32,870 bases of DNA. Source: a virus. Its lineage: Duplodnaviria > Heunggongvirae > Uroviricota > Caudoviricetes. Shown here piece by piece: positions 12,095-28,187 of the stretch. How positions within the stretch are numbered: the first letter of the stretch is position 1; each line of letters begins with the position of its first letter. The DNA lies in the IMG/VR virus record IMGVR_UViG_2737471818_000001; one strand, written 5' to 3'. The position numbers and the translations under genes are program-made. The notes under the pieces are model-generated. The model made no database searches. It was not told where the DNA came from and saw only the letters and a list, made by a program, of their open reading frames with translations.

Positions 12095-12429
12095 GGGGAA
12101 AGGATGCCGCCGGGGAAGGCCAGCGGCAATCGGGCGGGGTTTTGTGGGGGTTGAAACAACAACCAACAACCCAGAAAAACTATTTCCTAATTGCTCAATG
12201 CTTATAAGTAATTATCCAAATCCTTCCATAAGCCCCACTTACAAGCCAACAATGAACATCGTTACCACAAGTAACTTTTTGTGACCCCCTATCCAGTTAA
12301 AATAGCGCAGAATAAAGCATAAAAATTGAAACTATGGATAACCACATTGGAAAGATTTATACTTGTTAATATGTTAACCATTTGAAACCACTGCAGTTCA
12401 AACTTCTGAAAAGGAGCAATTTTCAACCT

Positions 12430-13359
12430 ATGGAAGTAACATTAAGCTTGAAAGATATTACGTCAATTATTGCAATAATCATCTCTCTTATTGCATTATA
12501 TTTTGCCGTAAGTAATTATAGGCGAAAATCCGGCACTCATATAAGAGGTCAATTTTGTATAAGTGAAAGTATAAACGCTGAAGACAAATACATCAGCAGT
12601 ATTACTTTGGAAAATTTCAAAGACAAATCCGTTATAATTTTCAAGATCTTCCTAAGAGTTGGAAGTAACTATTACATAGAGATTGATGACTTCGAGCGAG
12701 CCCCAAAAATACTAAAACCGTATGAATCCTATACTAATAACTACGACCCCGTGGATTTTTACTGTTTAAACATGAATCGTATTAATCTTAACAAACTTTT
12801 GAATTCAAAAAAAACAAAGATTAATATTGTGCTATCCACCTCTCATGGTAAGTATGTGGTAAAAGAATGGATAAATCTGTGGGATCCCATATATGATTTT
12901 TTCAAAAACCATATGACAGCTTATATCATCCCAATGACACCCATTGAAAAGGTGGGGTATTTTGGCTATAATTTCAAATACTTAGTCAAATTAAAAACTG
13001 AGGATGGATATAAAGAAACCATTCCAATTTATTCTAGTGACATTAATTACCCCAGGTTTAATAAATTTAGACTAACAGTGGAGTCACTTTCATCACGTGA
13101 AAAACTTGAAGACTTCCTAATAAATCAGATGATAATCGGAAATCTTAAATGTACTGATATTGAAGTTATCGACGCTGAACAACTAAGAAAAAGAAGTTAT
13201 CACCACGAATTTAAAGAAGAATATGAAGCAAAGCACTATAGTCTATTTTTCTATTTAGTTATTGGGAGACTATTAACCGTCTTTAGCAACATCAGGCTTC
13301 ACTTCATCAACCTCAAAAACAAAAAAAAGAGAAAACAATCCAACAATACAGACAGATAA
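12430..13359 (+). CDS. Low-GC cargo protein, 309 aa, with an N-terminal transmembrane anchor; function unknown
   Basis: ATG at 12430 preceded by AAGGAG (12411-12416); hydrophobic helix ITSIIAIIISLIALYFAV; Lys/Asn-rich; strongly AT-rich relative to flanking V and S; opposite strand to the late operons. Confidence 0.7.
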   Translation: MEVTLSLKDITSIIAIIISLIALYFAVSNYRRKSGTHIRGQFCISESINAEDKYISSITLENFKDKSVIIFKIFLRVGSNYYIEIDDFERAPKILKPYESYTNNYDPVDFYCLNMNRINLNKLLNSKKTKINIVLSTSHGKYVVKEWINLWDPIYDFFKNHMTAYIIPMTPIEKVGYFGYNFKYLVKLKTEDGYKETIPIYSSDINYPRFNKFRLTVESLSSREKLEDFLINQMIIGNLKCTDIEVIDAEQLRKRSYHHEFKEEYEAKHYSLFFYLVIGRLLTVFSNIRLHFINLKNKKKRKQSNNTDR

Positions 13360-21048: not shown

Positions 21049-22056
21049 ATGAAAAAACAACAGAATAAACCCGCCACAACGACCGCCAGCGCGCCGCAAA
21101 AAATGGAGGCGTTCACCTTTGGCGAGCCCTCCGCCGTTCTGGATCGCCGCGATATCCTCGATTATGTCGAGTGCATCAATAACGGGAAGTGGTACGAGCC
21201 GCCGGTCAACTTCTCTGGTCTAGCAAAAAGCCTGCGAGCCGCCGTGCATCACAGCTCGCCGATTTACGTAAAACGAAATATTCTGACGAGCACCTACATC
21301 CCGCACCCGCTCCTATCGCGTCAGGATTTCAGCCGCCTCGTGCTGGATTATCTGGTCTTTGCCAACGGCTATCTTGAGAAACGCATGAGCGTTACCGGCC
21401 AGCTTTTAAAACTGGAAACATCACCGGCTAAATATACCCGTCGTGGCGTCGAGGATGGCGTTTACTGGTACATATCGAGCTTTAACAACCCCCACCAGTT
21501 CGCACCCGGCTCGGTGTTTCACCTGCTGGAGCCTGACATCAATCAGGAGCTGTACGGCATGCCGGAATATCTGAGCGCACTGAATTCGGCATGGCTAAAT
21601 GAATCCGCCACCCTGTTTCGTCGCAAGTATTACCAGAATGGCGCGCACGCGGGTTACATCTTGTACGTCACCGACGCTGCACAAAGCAGCACTGATGTTG
21701 AAGCACTACGCAAGGCAATGCGTGACTCAAAAGGACTCGGCAATTTCAAGAACCTATTTTTTTATGCACCGAATGGAAAAGCTGATGGGATCAAAATTGT
21801 GCCACTCAGCGAAGTAGCAACGAAAGATGATTTCTTTAACATCAAAAAGGTTAGTGCAGAAGATTTGTTGAGTGCTCATAGGGTACCTCCACAAATGATG
21901 GGAATTATGCCTAACAATGTTGGCGGTTTTGGTGATGTTGTAAAAGCTGCACAAGTTTTTGTCCGAAATGAGTTAACTCCTTTACAGGAACGGTTCAAAG
22001 AACTAAACAACTGGTTAGAAATGGACGTTATAAGATTTAAAAAATATTCACTTTGA
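21049..22056 (+). CDS. Q: Portal protein Q, 335 aa; the 3' ~350 bp has markedly lower GC than the rest
   Basis: Similarity to P2 gpQ along the whole protein; ATG 1 nt after the P stop; composition changes near ~21680. Confidence 0.9.
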   Translation: MKKQQNKPATTTASAPQKMEAFTFGEPSAVLDRRDILDYVECINNGKWYEPPVNFSGLAKSLRAAVHHSSPIYVKRNILTSTYIPHPLLSRQDFSRLVLDYLVFANGYLEKRMSVTGQLLKLETSPAKYTRRGVEDGVYWYISSFNNPHQFAPGSVFHLLEPDINQELYGMPEYLSALNSAWLNESATLFRRKYYQNGAHAGYILYVTDAAQSSTDVEALRKAMRDSKGLGNFKNLFFYAPNGKADGIKIVPLSEVATKDDFFNIKKVSAEDLLSAHRVPPQMMGIMPNNVGGFGDVVKAAQVFVRNELTPLQERFKELNNWLEMDVIRFKKYSL

Positions 22057-22120
22057 TTTTCGAAATAAACATCTCAACATTATATTCAGCCCTGTAACTC
22101 AAGAACCACATATAATAACG

Positions 22121-22147
22121 TCACAGCCCACTTTATCGGGGCTGTGA
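22121..22147. terminator. Hairpin TCACAGCCC-loop-GGGCTGTGA between the convergent Q and cargo operon
   Basis: 9-bp inverted repeat 5 nt downstream of the cargo partner stop, followed on the minus strand by a U-rich tract. Confidence 0.55.
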
Positions 22148-22151
22148 TAAT

Positions 22152-23264
22152 TTAACCAACCCTTGCTTTTTTATATGGACCACAACTCCAACTAAAGAAA
22201 TTCTTACCTAACTTATACCATTTATCAGAAAGCACTGGTGTTAGGTGAGGATTATATTTTTTTAAACTTCCCTTTTGTATATATTTCAATGTATTACTGA
22301 GCAAATTCTCTCCAAAACCATCATAACTTACACAAGCAGTGTTGCAGCTACAGCGTTTTGATTCGATATACTCACAATCATATTTTATATCAAGCTTCTT
22401 TAATATCGGACGCCAATATGCACCATGTTTTCGATCGAGTTCAAGGGCTGTTTTAAAATCAAAACCTTTTTTATGGTCAATGTAAAATTTTACTGATTCA
22501 TCTACGGAGCAAAGATGCTTAAAGAAAATGAGAGATTTTTCTTTTTGTTGAAATTGACTTTGACTTCTTAATACATCTTCAATTGTCGATAAAGGAACTA
22601 GAGATTCTATTTCATGTACATCTAAAATCTCAACGAAACCTGAGCGAGTGATTTGTGAGCCCAAAAAATGTGAGCAAGTACCCCCGAATGGGGCTCTAGG
22701 ATGTTTTTTGTCATTATCCACAATACAAAAAACTATCTCATTATTTTGAATTGCACGCTCGAATACATCCTTAGTACTGCCCCCACCGCCATTTAGAGCG
22801 ATAAAACCCATTTCGCAGCGAGATAAGTTAATACCTTCGGCATAATGAGCCGCTATAACTCTAAAAAAATCAGAATCCAAAGGATTTTCACATACTATTT
22901 TCGTTTTTTGCAATTGTGCCGAGTCATTAAAATACAATGGACCACAAACAAATTTAAAAGATTCACCGTTCTGAACCCATCTAAATGATTTATCACTAAT
23001 ATTAAAGTCGACAGATACATAAAATGAGACCTGGTTCAAGATAGCATAGTACTCTGTTAGACCCGACAAAGCCTCTTGCGCGTAACTTTTTGATGAAAGG
23101 CTATAAAGCCCGCTTTGATCATTGATAATAGTTTTAAAAAAAACCCTTGCCCCTATAACCAAGTGTTTTTGTTCAGCAAATGCCCGAAGTATATTCTCAA
23201 CCGCTATGGCAAATGAATTATTTAGCACCTTCTCAGGTGTCGCATTTTCGATATGAATCAACAT
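22152..23264 (-). CDS. Cargo protein, 370 aa, uncharacterized partner of the upstream ATPase; possible nuclease-like effector
   Basis: ATG 2 nt after the ATPase stop; low GC; hydrophobic strand followed by acidic motif IVFCIVDNDKK; glycine-rich LNGGGGST; C-terminal Cys cluster CSCNTAC...WSCGP. Confidence 0.75.
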   Translation of the reverse strand: MLIHIENATPEKVLNNSFAIAVENILRAFAEQKHLVIGARVFFKTIINDQSGLYSLSSKSYAQEALSGLTEYYAILNQVSFYVSVDFNISDKSFRWVQNGESFKFVCGPLYFNDSAQLQKTKIVCENPLDSDFFRVIAAHYAEGINLSRCEMGFIALNGGGGSTKDVFERAIQNNEIVFCIVDNDKKHPRAPFGGTCSHFLGSQITRSGFVEILDVHEIESLVPLSTIEDVLRSQSQFQQKEKSLIFFKHLCSVDESVKFYIDHKKGFDFKTALELDRKHGAYWRPILKKLDIKYDCEYIESKRCSCNTACVSYDGFGENLLSNTLKYIQKGSLKKYNPHLTPVLSDKWYKLGKNFFSWSCGPYKKARVG

Positions 23265-23266
23265 AA

Positions 23267-24823
23267 CTACTTACCAGAGAAAAAGCCAACCGGCCAATTT
23301 TGTAGGAAACCATTCTCGTCAAAATAAGATTTCTTAACTATGGTCTGCTGCTTTTCATCTTTTTCAAATACCAGTATTGAAATATCATCCTGTGAAAGAT
23401 TTTCATTTTCCTCAATATATTCACCAAGTGCTTCAATCATGGTCTGGCTATGTGTCTCAAAAATTATCTTCAAATCCACATTGTTTTCTTTTGCTTTAGT
23501 TACTACTTTTGCAAAAATACTTGCTAAATTATGTTGATATGACGGATGTAAATGCAATTCTGGCTGCTCAATGATAAATGTTATAGGTTTTCTAACCGTG
23601 GTAGCACGACGTTCTGTCTCAAGCCAAATGGCTGTAACTATCGGCAAAACCTGAGAGTAACCAAACCCCATATCACTAACATTATAGTTCTCACTATTTT
23701 CACCGGTATTTATTAAAATTGCAAAGTGAGAGCCACTTTGTTCAACCTTAATAATGAAATCAAAATTTAACTTTGTCCAATCTTCAAATTTTGATTTATC
23801 AGCCGGCCTTAATGAATTCAAAAGCATTGCAAGATTGGAACCAGTATGATCTATCTCATTAACCTGTAAATCTTGAAAGCGATAAAATCTTTCTGATGTA
23901 GCACGCAGTGGAGCTATGTACTTTACATTTCTGAATGAATCTGACAAGGATGTATTTATTATATCTATAAGATTATTAATATTCCATCCAATTATAAATG
24001 GATATAACTCATTCATTATTTCATCATGTTGAAGTTCAAAGTTTCTACTAAAAACTTTTTGTTCCTTGAATAGAAAAGCAACTAATTTACTAGCGTACGC
24101 TTTGGGTATAAAGCCAATTCTTTTGAATGCCTCTGTCACTTGATTTATATCAGATTTAGTATGGAAATATTTCTTTATATATTTCGCTGCTGAATCAATA
24201 AATGACAATTCTAATGCCCTGTCATGCCTAGAATGTCTCAAATAGAATGATGTGCTTGGAGGAGGACTATCTTCCTTACCCTTCAAAATTAGATTGGGTA
24301 TGAACTGCCCAAGATTTTTAGCTATTATCCCATCACGCTCTATTGTTTTATCATCTGATTCAATGAGTAACTTAACATTACTGTTCTCATCCATTGAAAT
24401 AAATATTGTTAAATCAGCCAATATAAGCTTAATCGTTTTTGTTTTTGTTTTTTTATCTTTAGAGTAAACAGTCAACTCTGCTTCAACATCTGTTGGTTGC
24501 TTTGCTAAATCAGTAAAACGATAATATGTATATCTTTGTGAAACCTCTGGCGGAATTGAGAGTGAAAAACTGAACGTAATTTCTTTTTTTTCAGAGTTTC
24601 GGGAAAGTACATCTGTAAAATCGCCAAAATCCACATATCGCCCATACCATAGTATTGGACCAGTAGTATTTTCTTCTACAGATTGACGAAGTAAAGGAAA
24701 TGTACGCAATAGGGAACTTTTACCACTGCTGTTCTTACCAACAAATACTGTAATTGGTTTTAAATCAATAAAAGTTTTGTTGACAAAGCTCCTGAAGTTT
24801 TGAAGACCTATACCCTTAATCAT
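23267..24823 (-). CDS. Cargo OLD/ABC-type ATPase (AAA_15/AAA_21-like), about 518 aa from the ATG at 24823
   Basis: Walker A VFVGKNSSGKSSLL; Walker B/D-loop FIIEQPELHLHPSYQ; H-loop ETHSQ; long insert between them. The track ORF extends to a TTG at 24895 that overlaps the cos-like site; the GGAG-preceded ATG at 24821-24823 is the likelier start. Confidence 0.8.
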   Translation of the reverse strand: MIKGIGLQNFRSFVNKTFIDLKPITVFVGKNSSGKSSLLRTFPLLRQSVEENTTGPILWYGRYVDFGDFTDVLSRNSEKKEITFSFSLSIPPEVSQRYTYYRFTDLAKQPTDVEAELTVYSKDKKTKTKTIKLILADLTIFISMDENSNVKLLIESDDKTIERDGIIAKNLGQFIPNLILKGKEDSPPPSTSFYLRHSRHDRALELSFIDSAAKYIKKYFHTKSDINQVTEAFKRIGFIPKAYASKLVAFLFKEQKVFSRNFELQHDEIMNELYPFIIGWNINNLIDIINTSLSDSFRNVKYIAPLRATSERFYRFQDLQVNEIDHTGSNLAMLLNSLRPADKSKFEDWTKLNFDFIIKVEQSGSHFAILINTGENSENYNVSDMGFGYSQVLPIVTAIWLETERRATTVRKPITFIIEQPELHLHPSYQHNLASIFAKVVTKAKENNVDLKIIFETHSQTMIEALGEYIEENENLSQDDISILVFEKDEKQQTIVKKSYFDENGFLQNWPVGFFSGK

Positions 24824-24894
24824 TCCTAGCTCCATTAGTTCAATAAAATCAATCGATTTTGAGACAATCTTAATATCTTTGACAGGCGCGCGCA

Positions 24895-24913
24895 ATGCTA
24901 TCCCCGCCTCGCC
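24895..24913. other. Candidate cos site (cohesive-end sequence)
   Basis: Minus-strand read GGCGAGGCGGGGATAGCAT matches the P2/186 19-nt cohesive end as recalled at about 17 of 19 positions and in the expected orientation between the A side and the Q side. Confidence 0.55.
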
Positions 24914-25195: not shown

Positions 25196-25435
25196 CTAAG
25201 GTCGACGCGGTGGTGGCTTCGCCATATTTGGTCGCCGAAACGCCTCAATTTTCGGATTGCTGATATCGCTGTATTTGCGGTGATTATCCCGGACGACACC
25301 GGCACACCCGACCAGTTCGTCAGGTGTCAGATTCTCGTTAATCATAATTTGTTGCAGGCGATGCACGACGGCCATCAGCTTAATGTTTTGCGTTGAATGT
25401 ACCGGCGGCACTGGCATCATTCGCATATGACTCAT
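25196..25435 (-). CDS. Hypothetical small protein, about 79 aa from MSHMRMMPVPP
   Basis: ATG at 25433-25435 forms an ATGA overlap with the upstream gene; no recognisable motif. Confidence 0.5.
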   Translation of the reverse strand: MSHMRMMPVPPVHSTQNIKLMAVVHRLQQIMINENLTPDELVGCAGVVRDNHRKYSDISNPKIEAFRRPNMAKPPPRRP

Positions 25436-25896
25436 TTTAACCACCCATTTTTTTTAGCATATGCGACCATCTTATCGGAATATTGCCAGACACCATCATC
25501 AGCGACGTAAGCCCCACCCGAAACGCCGTTAAGCGTTTCATATCCAATAGCCAGCCCTAACGGGTGTAGAATTTCGTGATTAATTCTGAAAACAAGCCCT
25601 TTCTCGCTTAACTCTTTCCAGTTCATTAGGAACATACCGCACTGGACATCTGACATCATTAACTGAAAACTCAGCATCACATAATTTTCCACCCATTCAG
25701 CTAAATCAGTAACGTTTGTCACCCTCACTGATACACGTTTCCCGGTATATCCGTTTACCGGTTCCCATTCATGCAACCCGAGAATATCACCGCTAGAATA
25801 ATCGCGGTCATTGAGACGAAATTCAGCACGTTTTTCCCGAGATATCACCGCGTTAAAATGCTCAGGTGCAATTTTTAACTGATGGATTTTGCTCAT
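25432..25896 (-). CDS. ASCH/DUF3850-like domain protein, about 154 aa from MSKIHQLKIAPEHF, with an unassigned C-terminal extension
   Basis: N-terminal pattern H.LKI.PEHF.AV.S.EKR.EFRLNDRDY..GD recalled as typical of DUF3850; ATG at 25894-25896 overlaps the A stop by 1 nt; lower GC than A. Confidence 0.6.
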   Translation of the reverse strand: MSKIHQLKIAPEHFNAVISREKRAEFRLNDRDYSSGDILGLHEWEPVNGYTGKRVSVRVTNVTDLAEWVENYVMLSFQLMMSDVQCGMFLMNWKELSEKGLVFRINHEILHPLGLAIGYETLNGVSGGAYVADDGVWQYSDKMVAYAKKNGWLK

Positions 25897-28187
25897 TAAC
25901 TCCACTCCTTTTGCATTGAGAATCCCGGCCACTCATCAGCAGCCGCGTATTTGAATTTTTTATCGCCATAAATCACCGTTGCCCCACGCGCCAGCGCTTC
26001 AAGCTCCCACCGTTCCGGGGTAATGCCCTCCTGAGCCAAATCGAAACGAATTTTCGCTATGCGATCCCTTTCAGGTTTTGTCATCCTGGCTGATGGCGCT
26101 TGCTCGCCCGTTTTGAGTGGCTCATTGCTTCTTTGCTGGCGATTTTTGCGAGGGATGCCAGCTTTTAACGCGCCATTAAGCACCTTCATGACGTCTGGCT
26201 CATTCCAGCCGATAACCCCGCGCTCAATCAGATTTAACACCGCTGCGGCTTGCTCAGACGGTGTAGGTGTCATAACTGGAGTATCACCGCCGGTGAGCTT
26301 TCCACAGTTATTGACAGGACTCCGAGGCGCGGCAGAGCCGCTTTTTAAGGTCAAAGGCTCAACGGCCAAAATCTTTGGAACAATGCGCCATTCGGCTGTA
26401 CGGGTTACATGTATGCGGCTCGCCCCGAGGTGAGGGGCATAAATGCCGACCACTCTCTCAATATCTTCCTCATATTCGTTGACCTCATCCGTCACCTTAC
26501 GGGCGACCCTGACGGCCTGCGCATCACGCGGCATGTTTGCCCCACCCTGCGCGATGATATACAGGTCAAATTCACCTTCATCAGCAGCAGCCCGGACAGC
26601 CTCGACCCGGTCGTCAAACTCACTGGCGATACTCACGCCGCGCGGCAGCTTGCGCAGTTCGCGGTAAGCGCCCATTGTCGGCAGACCAATAGGTTTAAAC
26701 TGCGGGATGCGCCATGTAGACGCCCATGCGGTTACGGCTGCGGCGGTATCTTTCAGAGGCTTGCCGGTGTCGTGGTCGAGCTGGCCGTCGAGTGCGTAGC
26801 CGTCGATATTTTTGGCAATGTATTTAGCGATATAACCCGCCGCACCGCCCTGATTAAGATGACGTGACTCAAAGCGCTGTTTTGCCGCTCCCTTTTCGTG
26901 CCCGTCCTCTTTGAGAGCATAACGACGCATAATTTCGTTAATAGCTTTACGCTGACCGGGTTTGCAAAACATCATCATGTGCCAGTGTGGCGTCCCGTCG
27001 TGGTGCGGTTCGACAACACGCATCCCATAAACCTCTAAATCGTTATCTTTGAAAGCGGTGCGTATCAGGCTCCAGATTCGGCACAGATAGCGCTGGCCGT
27101 CTTTTGGGGTAAATGCGGTTTCATTCCAGCCATGATTGAGCTGCACAGTTTTGTTTTCACCTTTGCCGACCTGTCGGGTCGGGTGATACTTCGATGGCGT
27201 GGTCAGCGTGATAAACATCCCCACATCACCAACGCTGGCCGCGTAGCGTTCAATCCCGGCGATAGTGTTCATCAGTTCCATACGACGTATTTCAGGGTTA
27301 GAAATACTCCCCATTACCTTACTGATGAGGTCAATACGTTCACCGGTGACTTTGTTTTCCAGCTCGCAGGATTTCAGGTATTCGAGATTAGCCAAGCGGC
27401 GCGCGTGCACATCGCGGATCGCCATTTTGCTTGCGTAAGGTGAGCGGTCTTTGTTGACCTCACCAGCCGCAATAAGCAGCGCCTCGCGCCAGCGCATCCG
27501 CTGCGCCTTGAGCTGGCTGACCCACCACTCATCTTTTATCAGACGGGAAATAGCAGAAAATGCCATGCGGATCGTCATCTGACCCTTACGGTATTTTTTC
27601 CAGTACATCGGGGTGAAGTTAAAAGCGCGAGCAATACCTGCCACCTGACCGTATAAATGCGCCTGCGCCTCATCGGTGAATAAAGTTTCTTTCCCGCCGT
27701 GCGCCTCCTCCCATGCGTCGCTTAACTCCTCGTATTTGCTCCAGAGTTGTGACGCTATTCTGGCCGCAAATTTCTTAAGCTCTTTGTCATTCATATCAGG
27801 CAGGCGCGTATATTCATCACGCTCAGACAGAAAGCCGCGCGAGACAGAATCATTCATCCCGCACAGCTCGTTAACACGTTCAAGTCGGGGTAACAGTTTC
27901 CGCTCAAAAGTGTTTCTTAGGAAATACAGCCCATCGAGAGGGCTTTTGCTTCGTCTAATGAAGTTATAACGAGAGTTAAACAGTGTTTTCAGGAAAAAAG
28001 GGAGGCGGTCGATTCGATATAAAACACCTTGCACCTGACGGAATTCGGCACGTGTAAGGGGTCTGTCACGACCGATGGCCGCTTGAGGGGCATTCCATGA
28101 GTAAGCGCCGACGAACGTGTCGCCGGTGCGCTTAGATATTTTTGGCAGTAACGAAGAGGCAACTTGCCCCCGAGATTCAACGGCCAT
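25896..28187 (-). CDS. A: Replication initiation protein A (rolling-circle nickase), about 763 aa from MAVESRGQVA
   Basis: Strong similarity to P2 gpA as recalled, including ...VVEPHHDGTPHWHMMMFC... and ...LNQGGAAGYIAKYIAKNIDGY...; ATG at 28185-28187. Confidence 0.9.
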   Translation of the reverse strand: MAVESRGQVASSLLPKISKRTGDTFVGAYSWNAPQAAIGRDRPLTRAEFRQVQGVLYRIDRLPFFLKTLFNSRYNFIRRSKSPLDGLYFLRNTFERKLLPRLERVNELCGMNDSVSRGFLSERDEYTRLPDMNDKELKKFAARIASQLWSKYEELSDAWEEAHGGKETLFTDEAQAHLYGQVAGIARAFNFTPMYWKKYRKGQMTIRMAFSAISRLIKDEWWVSQLKAQRMRWREALLIAAGEVNKDRSPYASKMAIRDVHARRLANLEYLKSCELENKVTGERIDLISKVMGSISNPEIRRMELMNTIAGIERYAASVGDVGMFITLTTPSKYHPTRQVGKGENKTVQLNHGWNETAFTPKDGQRYLCRIWSLIRTAFKDNDLEVYGMRVVEPHHDGTPHWHMMMFCKPGQRKAINEIMRRYALKEDGHEKGAAKQRFESRHLNQGGAAGYIAKYIAKNIDGYALDGQLDHDTGKPLKDTAAAVTAWASTWRIPQFKPIGLPTMGAYRELRKLPRGVSIASEFDDRVEAVRAAADEGEFDLYIIAQGGANMPRDAQAVRVARKVTDEVNEYEEDIERVVGIYAPHLGASRIHVTRTAEWRIVPKILAVEPLTLKSGSAAPRSPVNNCGKLTGGDTPVMTPTPSEQAAAVLNLIERGVIGWNEPDVMKVLNGALKAGIPRKNRQQRSNEPLKTGEQAPSARMTKPERDRIAKIRFDLAQEGITPERWELEALARGATVIYGDKKFKYAAADEWPGFSMQKEWS

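Follow-up and report, generated by a model that had tools for sequence, protein, structure and literature searches.

A two-gene cassette in the tin/old slot of a P2-like prophage very probably encodes an OLD-type ATPase and a Toprim nuclease effector

The 32,870-nt DNA of IMG/VR virus record IMGVR_UViG_2737471818_000001 (hereafter, the window) is an essentially complete P2-like prophage; over the stretch tested, its identity to Escherichia coli EC11 (NZ_CP027255.1) is 100%. It contains a two-gene block on the minus strand, the second gene of which (open reading frame (ORF) 22152-23264) encodes a protein of 370 amino acids (aa), referred to here as the partner; the product of the adjacent upstream gene is referred to as the ATPase. 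The partner is very probably an OLD/Toprim-type, metal-dependent nuclease that is paired with the ATPase in a two-gene anti-phage cassette. This reading is carried by the fold of the partner, the conservation of its motifs, which include a putative, intact OLD-type catalytic set, the synteny of the two genes and their location in a hotspot of anti-phage systems. The explanation as a whole, in which a Toprim nuclease is the effector of an ATPase-controlled anti-phage cassette in the tin/old hotspot, is one that we consider likely to be correct.

Results

The initial annotation of the window had given the partner no obvious family and had suggested a search with its predicted structure. The fold matches obtained were OLD nucleases, not DnaG or topoisomerases. 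The best match was the C-terminal region of the class 2 OLD protein of Burkholderia pseudomallei (BpOLD; 6nk8_B; score of 9.4, 158 residues aligned), followed by the class 1 OLD protein of Thermus scotoductus (TsOLD; 6p74; 7.7), the reverse transcriptase-Toprim protein of Retron Ec67 (7.1), PARIS AriB (8v46_D; 7.0) and Gabija GajA (6.8). The model has an OLD-like alpha/beta fold, with a Glu, a Gly and a DxD motif following beta1, beta2 and beta3, respectively. This is the canonical layout of a Toprim domain, in which the invariant Gly after beta2 is a hallmark. The region after the Toprim core is helical, and in the class 2 OLD proteins a helical domain follows the Toprim domain too.

Conservation was assessed in an alignment of 142 family representatives and the partner (143 sequences, with a median identity to the partner of 24%). 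The Toprim core was the most conserved region of the protein, with a mean pairwise identity of 31%; the positions and conservation of the individual residues are listed in Table 1. The DND motif (in IVFCIVDNDKKHP, aa 177-189), which had been noted from the sequence as following a predicted beta-strand, stands at the end of strand 178-183 in the model, and the glycine-rich segment noted with it (ALNGGGGSTKD, aa 156-166) holds the conserved G159-G161 of the Toprim glycine motif. In addition to the canonical Toprim residues, the active site of BpOLD contains E404, four residues past the Toprim Glu, K562, and T506-x-E508, which lies in alphaH1, the helical domain's first helix. The partner has an acidic residue at the same spacing from its Toprim Glu, and its E218-x-E220 forms a pattern like that of T506-x-E508. 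K265 lies in a DHKKG motif, in which D263 and G267 are also conserved, at 94% and 99%, respectively. The seven-residue set E-D-D-D-E-E-K is whole in 117 of the 143 sequences, and the changes in the remainder are mostly conservative.

As the canonical Toprim layout and the OLD-specific additions stand in the expected order, the residues were mapped onto those of BpOLD. On the basis of the alignment and the model, we propose that E126, D183 and D185 would bind metal A, that D130, E218 and E220 would bind metal B, and that K265 would be the catalytic lysine. The suggestion made from the sequence, that the acidic motif is compatible with a TOPRIM-like metal site and the locus with a split OLD-like arrangement, is supported by the fold matches, the conserved putative catalytic set and the pairing with the ATPase.

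The initial annotation had also described a C-terminal cysteine cluster (CSCNTACVSYDG, aa 305-316, and WSCGPYK, aa 359-365) that could form a zinc ribbon. The cluster holds up as a conserved four-Cys unit, and all four Cys are present in 105 of the 143 sequences. Approximately ten representatives have lost the whole Cys-rich loop and, for the most part, the fourth Cys with it, and this joint loss is the behaviour expected of a single metal-binding unit. The pattern of conservation suggests that the four Cys are a separate structural module, probably zinc-binding. A zinc ribbon was not borne out by the model, in which no ribbon hairpins were seen and the loop (aa 290-312) had the lowest predicted local distance difference test values (pLDDT, 56-62). 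In the partner and its close variants, aa 299 (22368-22370, minus strand) is a Tyr, whereas the first Cys of the cluster stands at this position in 90% of the family; the nearby C297 and C307 might stand in for it.

The partner's lack of a family assignment was confirmed, with sequence-family searches that were empty, insignificant or marginal. There were no matches to Pfam, PHROG or PDB sequences (phmmer), and the NCBIfam search returned a single, insignificant match. At a threshold of E ≤ 1, Pfam gave no match for the partner or for 120 of its relatives, so they have no membership of OLD-like_TOPRIM (PF20469) or the Toprim families. Two profile-versus-PDB searches with the partner family were negative, and noise-level matches across the sequence searches included a TGF-beta receptor, NDUFA10 and PurQ. 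The sole PADLOC match of the partner was a marginal one to GajA (E of 0.027), which aligned aa 115-190 with positions 360-436 of the GajA profile, where the GajA Toprim domain begins.

The partner is nevertheless a real, conserved gene and not a chance ORF, since relatives matching over nearly the full length were recovered in number. A word-indexed search identified 31 clusters, mostly from Enterobacterales, and an exhaustive profile search identified 1872 family clusters (50% identity) at E ≤ 1e-3, with 1427 of these at E ≤ 1e-10. Nearly all of the relatives from the profile search are ~370 aa long with full-length matches. All 134 named members of the partner's 90% cluster are annotated as 'hypothetical protein'. 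The only informative public label found for the family is 'putative OLD family nuclease', which is given to the member in Pseudomonas phage 62-2.

The ATPase start, MIKG, is preceded by GGAG. Its Pfam matches were AAA_15 (1.3e-26), AAA_21 (8.4e-19) and DUF3696 (5.6e-07), and the best PADLOC matches were Menshen NsnB (6.9e-55), PDC-M55A (3.4e-46) and HEC-03B (1e-36). Across eight homologues from different phyla, the Q-loop Arg (PLRA), the GFG signature, the ETHS H-loop and the IEQPE Walker B were invariant, in addition to the features in Table 1. The Q-loop Arg and the GFG in place of SGG are further deviant motifs, sited at aa 305-308 and 384-391. For NsnB, the Menshen analysis describes deviations of DE to EN, of the Q-motif to Arg and of SGG to GxG, and predicts for the NsnB dimer that both DUF3696 tails clamp the effector NsnC at its N-terminal domain.

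The pairing of the two genes is conserved. In every related locus inspected in which the upstream region is present, the ATPase gene lies directly upstream of the partner gene; it is in fragments in the three decayed copies described below, and in one Planktothrix locus (L009) it is truncated at the contig end. The pairing was seen in Proteobacteria, Cyanobacteria, Firmicutes, P2-like phages and a filamentous Pseudomonas phage, and the related loci include those of Thiothrix, Geitlerinema, a Desulfuromonadales metagenome-assembled genome (MAG), Planktothrix and nine IMG/VR viral contigs. In most other loci examined, the two genes abut or overlap; in Geitlerinema (L013), 48 nt separate them. 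No third conserved gene recurs in the related loci inspected. Among the best 150 representatives of the partner family, which are 189-396 aa long, no fused ATPase-Toprim form was found. Six P2-like viral contigs always carry the pair between gpA and the portal gene, even at a gpA identity of 34-36%. The full locus is present in 39 of 5426 complete E. coli genomes, and is always chromosomal.

Outside the P2-like phages, the pair has varied neighbours. It adjoins relaxase/NikA genes in Vibrio sinensis, lies between the genes for chorismate synthase and an amylase in Lachnoanaerobaculum, and stands beside the repressor/excisionase region in Pseudomonas phage 62-2 (OR621022.1, 3399-6035). The latter is a filamentous (Tubulavirales) phage of Pseudomonas aeruginosa, in which the ATPase is annotated as 'DNA double-strand break repair rad50 ATPase'. 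In two Oscillatoriales MAGs (loci L010 and L011; 4306-7131), the pair is an isolated two-gene cassette between dnaB and rplI; one of the Oscillatoriales dnaB genes is very long (1373 aa vs. 590 aa) and possibly contains an intein.

In the loci compared, the partner diverges faster than the ATPase, with identities for the partner and the ATPase, respectively, of 67% and 80%, 38% and 51%, and 26% and 47% (L016-L024 and L007-L015 against the window). Within the partner, variation is greatest in the N-terminal domain. The faster divergence would fit a pattern of an arms race or of interface coevolution. Decayed copies of the cassette were also identified: both genes are frameshifted in Pectobacterium sp. 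PL152 (L005) and Morganella psychrotolerans (L006), and the ATPase gene of Thiothrix unzii (L002) is split by an insertion sequence (IS) with a DDE_3 transposase. Such decay fits dispensable and possibly costly cargo.

Within the window, the two genes occupy the tin/old slot of the prophage. The low guanine-cytosine (GC) content that had been noted for the partner gene was confirmed (0.35), and extends to the ATPase gene (0.33); the portal and gpA genes on either side have values of 0.48-0.53, and the window overall has 0.51. The region of low GC spans approximately 22000-24900, and the island is flanked by the portal gene Q (21049-22056, plus strand) and by the gpA side (25896-28187, minus strand). 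On the map of P2, the lysogenic-conversion genes tin/old lie between gene A/orf91 and cos, and this slot is a hotspot of anti-phage systems (Rousset et al. 2022). The terminator-like hairpin that follows the partner gene (Table 1) was not called by a consensus terminator scan.

Two further regions of the window were noted. Between gene A and the cassette (25196-25896, minus strand) are a DUF3850/DUF7415 (ASCH-like) gene and a 76-aa ORF without a family. The DUF3850 gene accompanies gpA in the closest viral contigs and not in the more distant ones; as it travels with gpA in the closest contigs only, it is probably part of the phage backbone and not a component of the system. A second low-GC cargo gene (about 0.32-0.36) is located at 12382-13359 (plus strand), between tail/baseplate genes, at what we take to be roughly the position of P2 orf30. 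Its 325-aa product has a hydrophobic helix at the N-terminus and no Pfam match, and the gene is possibly another lysogenic-conversion or defence gene.

Table 1. Positions of the cassette, its proposed functional residues and associated elements in the window.
Feature	Position	Strand	Remarks
Low-GC cargo island, tin/old slot	22060..24900	.	GC profile, EC11 RefSeq annotation, P2 map
ATPase gene, 518 aa (RefSeq start), OLD-ABC type, AAA_15 with DUF3696 tail	23267..24823	-	Longest ORF reaches 24895
Walker A, GKNSSGKS	24716..24739	-	GxNSxGKS invariant in 8 homologues from different phyla
Walker B/D-loop, EQPELHLHP (ATPase aa 419-427), EQ replacing the DE dyad	23543..23569	-	Invariant in 8 homologues
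DUF3696 C-terminal tail, ending in invariant NWPxGF	23279..23395	-	Pfam, alignment
Gap between ATPase stop (TAG) and partner ATG, 2 nt	23265..23266	-	Tight operon coupling
Partner gene, proposed OLD-type Toprim nuclease effector	22152..23264	-	ATG start; stop codon 22152-22154
N-terminal alpha/beta domain, aa 1-118, proposed docking/adaptor domain for the ATPase tail	22911..23264	-
Toprim core, aa 119-235, strands 122-125, 155-158, 178-183 and 209-214	22560..22910	-	Predicted secondary structure
E126, Toprim Glu just after strand 122-125; proposed metal A ligand, equivalent to BpOLD E400	22887..22889	-	100% conserved
D130, acidic, +4 from the Toprim Glu; proposed metal B site	22875..22877	-	97% conserved; spacing as BpOLD E400/E404
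G159-G160-G161, Toprim glycine motif after strand 155-158	22782..22790	-	99%, 91% and 100% conserved
D183-N-D185, DxD ending strand 178-183; proposed equivalents of BpOLD D455/D457	22710..22718	-	99% and 100% conserved
E218-I-E220, opening the first helix (219-222) after strand 209-214; proposed metal B ligands	22605..22613	-	E218 89%, E220 100% conserved
C-terminal helical region, aa 236-370, containing the Cys cluster	22155..22559	-	Predicted secondary structure
K265 in DHKKG, helical region; proposed catalytic lysine, cf. BpOLD K562	22470..22472	-	97% conserved
Cys-rich loop, aa 297-311 (C297, Y299, C305, C307, C311)	22332..22376	-	Columns 299, 305 and 311 Cys in 90%, 92% and 88%
C361 (WSCGP), fourth Cys of the cluster	22182..22184	-	84% conserved
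Terminator-like hairpin, 4 nt past the partner stop, then a U-rich stretch	22121..22147	-	RNA fold -17.6 kcal/mol, z -3.4

Discussion

We infer the formation of a complex, its trigger, its substrate and the defence phenotype of the cassette as follows. The central domain of the partner would act as a Toprim nuclease of the OLD type. Its two-metal active site would be complete and include K265, which may serve as the general acid or stabilise the transition state. With the ATPase gene translationally coupled to the partner gene, dimers or tetramers of the ATPase would hold the partner via their DUF3696 tails and keep the nuclease inactive. The tail contact would most likely be made through the variable N-terminal domain of the partner, and, by analogy, the docking surface on the ATPase is probably this C-terminal tail rather than, as in PARIS, the ATPase head. 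A phage-derived cue would be sensed by the ATPase and change its nucleotide or oligomeric state, upon which the partner would be released, or switched on allosterically, in a nucleotide-dependent manner. The activated partner would then cut nucleic acid, leading to abortive infection at the cost of the cell. Of the possible substrates, transfer RNA (tRNA) is favoured: AriB is an established tRNA-cleaving nuclease (tRNase), and a 2026 preprint reports the same of P2 OLD; the alternative is DNA, which class 2 OLD degrades in vitro.

Several observations weigh against a nuclease effector under the control of an ATPase. The ATPase has a Gln where ABC ATPases carry the catalytic Glu, so its turnover of ATP may be slow or absent; we speculate from this substitution that nucleotide binding, and not fast hydrolysis, is what matters. 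The mapping onto the residues of BpOLD was built on motif order and secondary-structure position, and no sequence-level homology to any solved Toprim was demonstrated by the PDB profile searches. The comparison of the family profile to the C-terminal region of P2 Old (a single sequence) by hhalign was likewise not significant. The N-terminal domain of the partner gave no specific fold match, and the docking role proposed for it is thus an analogy. Upstream of the ATPase gene, the promoter scan found nothing convincing. Finally, PDC-M55, the nearest catalogued relative, is itself a candidate system, and HEC-01, which also combines an ATPase with a Toprim protein, showed no detectable defence in the published assay.

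The cassette would work most like PARIS, Menshen and the fused OLD proteins, without belonging to any of these as defined. A reduced Menshen, consisting of NsnB and an NsnC-like partner (an inactive-PIN adaptor joined to a Toprim) with NsnA lost or never present, is possible in our view, and on balance doubtful. NsnB is the closest counterpart of the ATPase and its best PADLOC match; the DUF3696 tail and the deviant ABC motifs (DE to EQ/EN, the Q-loop Arg and the GxG signature) are common to both, the effector gene is directly downstream of the ATPase gene in both, and some NsnC effectors have a Toprim fold. As the published Menshen survey was seeded on NsnA, pairs without NsnA would have been outside its reach. 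Membership of Menshen itself was rejected, since the defining upstream NsnA gene (ParB-DUF262 with a DNA-binding domain) is absent from the window and from all of the related loci inspected. A PIN-like adaptor was not confirmed in the N-terminal domain of the partner, and the Toprim of the partner is OLD-like, as opposed to DUF4276 or RloB. PARIS is closest in logic, being a two-gene, hotspot-borne system in which an ATPase controls a trans-acting Toprim tRNase, and here too an AAA_15/AAA_21 ATPase gene adjoins the effector gene. That the pair is a divergent PARIS, in which the ATPase (AriA) sequesters the Toprim protein (AriB) until a phage anti-restriction protein triggers its release and the cleavage of tRNA, is nonetheless unlikely. 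The PARIS rule of Rousset et al. (2022) requires DUF4435 (PF14491) at 27 bits or more; no DUF4435 match was found at E ≤ 1 in the partner or the 120 relatives, and membership was rejected. There was no match to the AriB model in PADLOC, and that to the AriA model (373 positions) looks like a generic AAA_15 match, as it covers the same span as Pfam AAA_15 (374 positions). Compared to PARIS, the ATPase resembles NsnB, having DUF3696 and EQ in its Walker B, and the proteins are longer (518 and 370 aa); we did not find DUF3696 or the extra N- and C-terminal domains described for AriA/AriB.

Two further explanations dispense with a regulated defence effector. In a plain toxin-antitoxin (TA) system, the partner would be a constitutively toxic nuclease and the ATPase an antitoxin with no sensing function. 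Tight translational coupling with the toxin gene downstream, the description of AAA_21 as 'putative AbiEii toxin, Type IV TA system' and the faster divergence of the partner would all suit such a system, but an ATPase of 518 aa with conserved nucleotide-binding motifs and large insertions exceeds the needs of a simple antitoxin, and plain TA behaviour has been excluded experimentally in the analogous PARIS and WonAB. We consider it very unlikely. The least probable explanation is a role in phage DNA metabolism, with a Rad50/RecF-like ATPase and a Toprim nicking enzyme serving replication, recombination or repair. The annotations of the pair in phage 62-2 ('rad50 ATPase' and 'putative OLD family nuclease') point in this direction, and Toprim domains occur in primases, topoisomerases and RecR as well. 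The fold of the partner matches OLD nucleases instead of DnaG or topoisomerases, however, and the pair lies in a slot for cargo that is variable, dispensable and foreign in its GC content. Its occurrence among the E. coli genomes is sporadic, frameshifted or IS-disrupted copies exist, and elsewhere it is an isolated cassette between housekeeping genes.

The remaining known systems differ from the cassette in their architecture or in their nuclease. In the OLD family (BpOLD, TsOLD and P2 Old), the ATPase and Toprim are fused, whereas here they are separate polypeptides; as the two ORFs are separated by a stop codon and a 2-nt gap, assignment to the fused family as defined was rejected. The partner further differs from OLD proteins in having no Pfam OLD-like_TOPRIM match or detectable sequence homology and in its additional N-terminal alpha/beta domain and four-Cys module, and the ATPase in its DUF3696 tail. 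PDC-M55, an 'embedded' PADLOC candidate released by Payne et al., of which no mention was found in the literature searched, has the same two-gene logic. The PDC-M55A model matches the ATPase over profile positions 161-400 of 421 only. The PDC-M55B model matches 89 of the 120 partner relatives weakly (best E of 6.4e-13) in the Toprim core (profile positions ~78-248 of 315), and has no match to the E. coli partner itself. With a partial match for the A model and none to the partner for the B model, PDC-M55 membership was rejected, and the relationship is distant. HEC-01 was also rejected, as the partner had no HEC-01B match and HEC-01B was not among the families listed for the 120 relatives. In WonAB, PD-T4-4 and Septu, as proposed here, an OLD-ABC ATPase binds a separate nuclease through its dimerised C-terminal extensions, and these systems too are prophage-borne; WonAB causes abortive infection through translation shut-off. 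Their nucleases differ from the Toprim partner, WonB and PD-T4-4_B being of the PD-(D/E)xK type and PtuB an HNH nuclease, and identity with WonAB was rejected because of the PD-(D/E)xK nuclease of WonB.

The conceptual advance is modest, because pairs of an ATPase and a Toprim (PARIS, OLD, Gabija and HEC-01) are already established; the kind of system is known, and it is the partner family itself that is uncatalogued. For a family of ~1,900 clusters whose members are named 'hypothetical' in public sources, and which the current defence-finding hidden Markov models overlook in E. coli, a fold and active site are proposed here along with a testable mechanism. The NsnB/DUF3696 ATPase chassis is found without NsnA and with an OLD-like Toprim effector, which broadens the view that ABC-ATPase defence systems are built from interchangeable modules for sensing and for effector action. 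A more far-reaching proposal, for which we see the case as evenly balanced, is that of a large, uncatalogued 'split OLD' family of two-gene defence systems, in which an NsnB-type ATPase senses infection without NsnA and the effector is a zinc-Cys4 Toprim protein, possibly a tRNase that has a trigger and a target spectrum of its own. If true, this would join Menshen, PARIS and OLD in one modular lineage and add a new validated system to the repertoire of the P2 hotspot. As a candidate anti-phage cassette of the P2 tin/old hotspot, the pair bears on the prediction of phage host range in E. coli and its relatives among the Enterobacterales, and this relevance extends to Pseudomonas with filamentous prophages.

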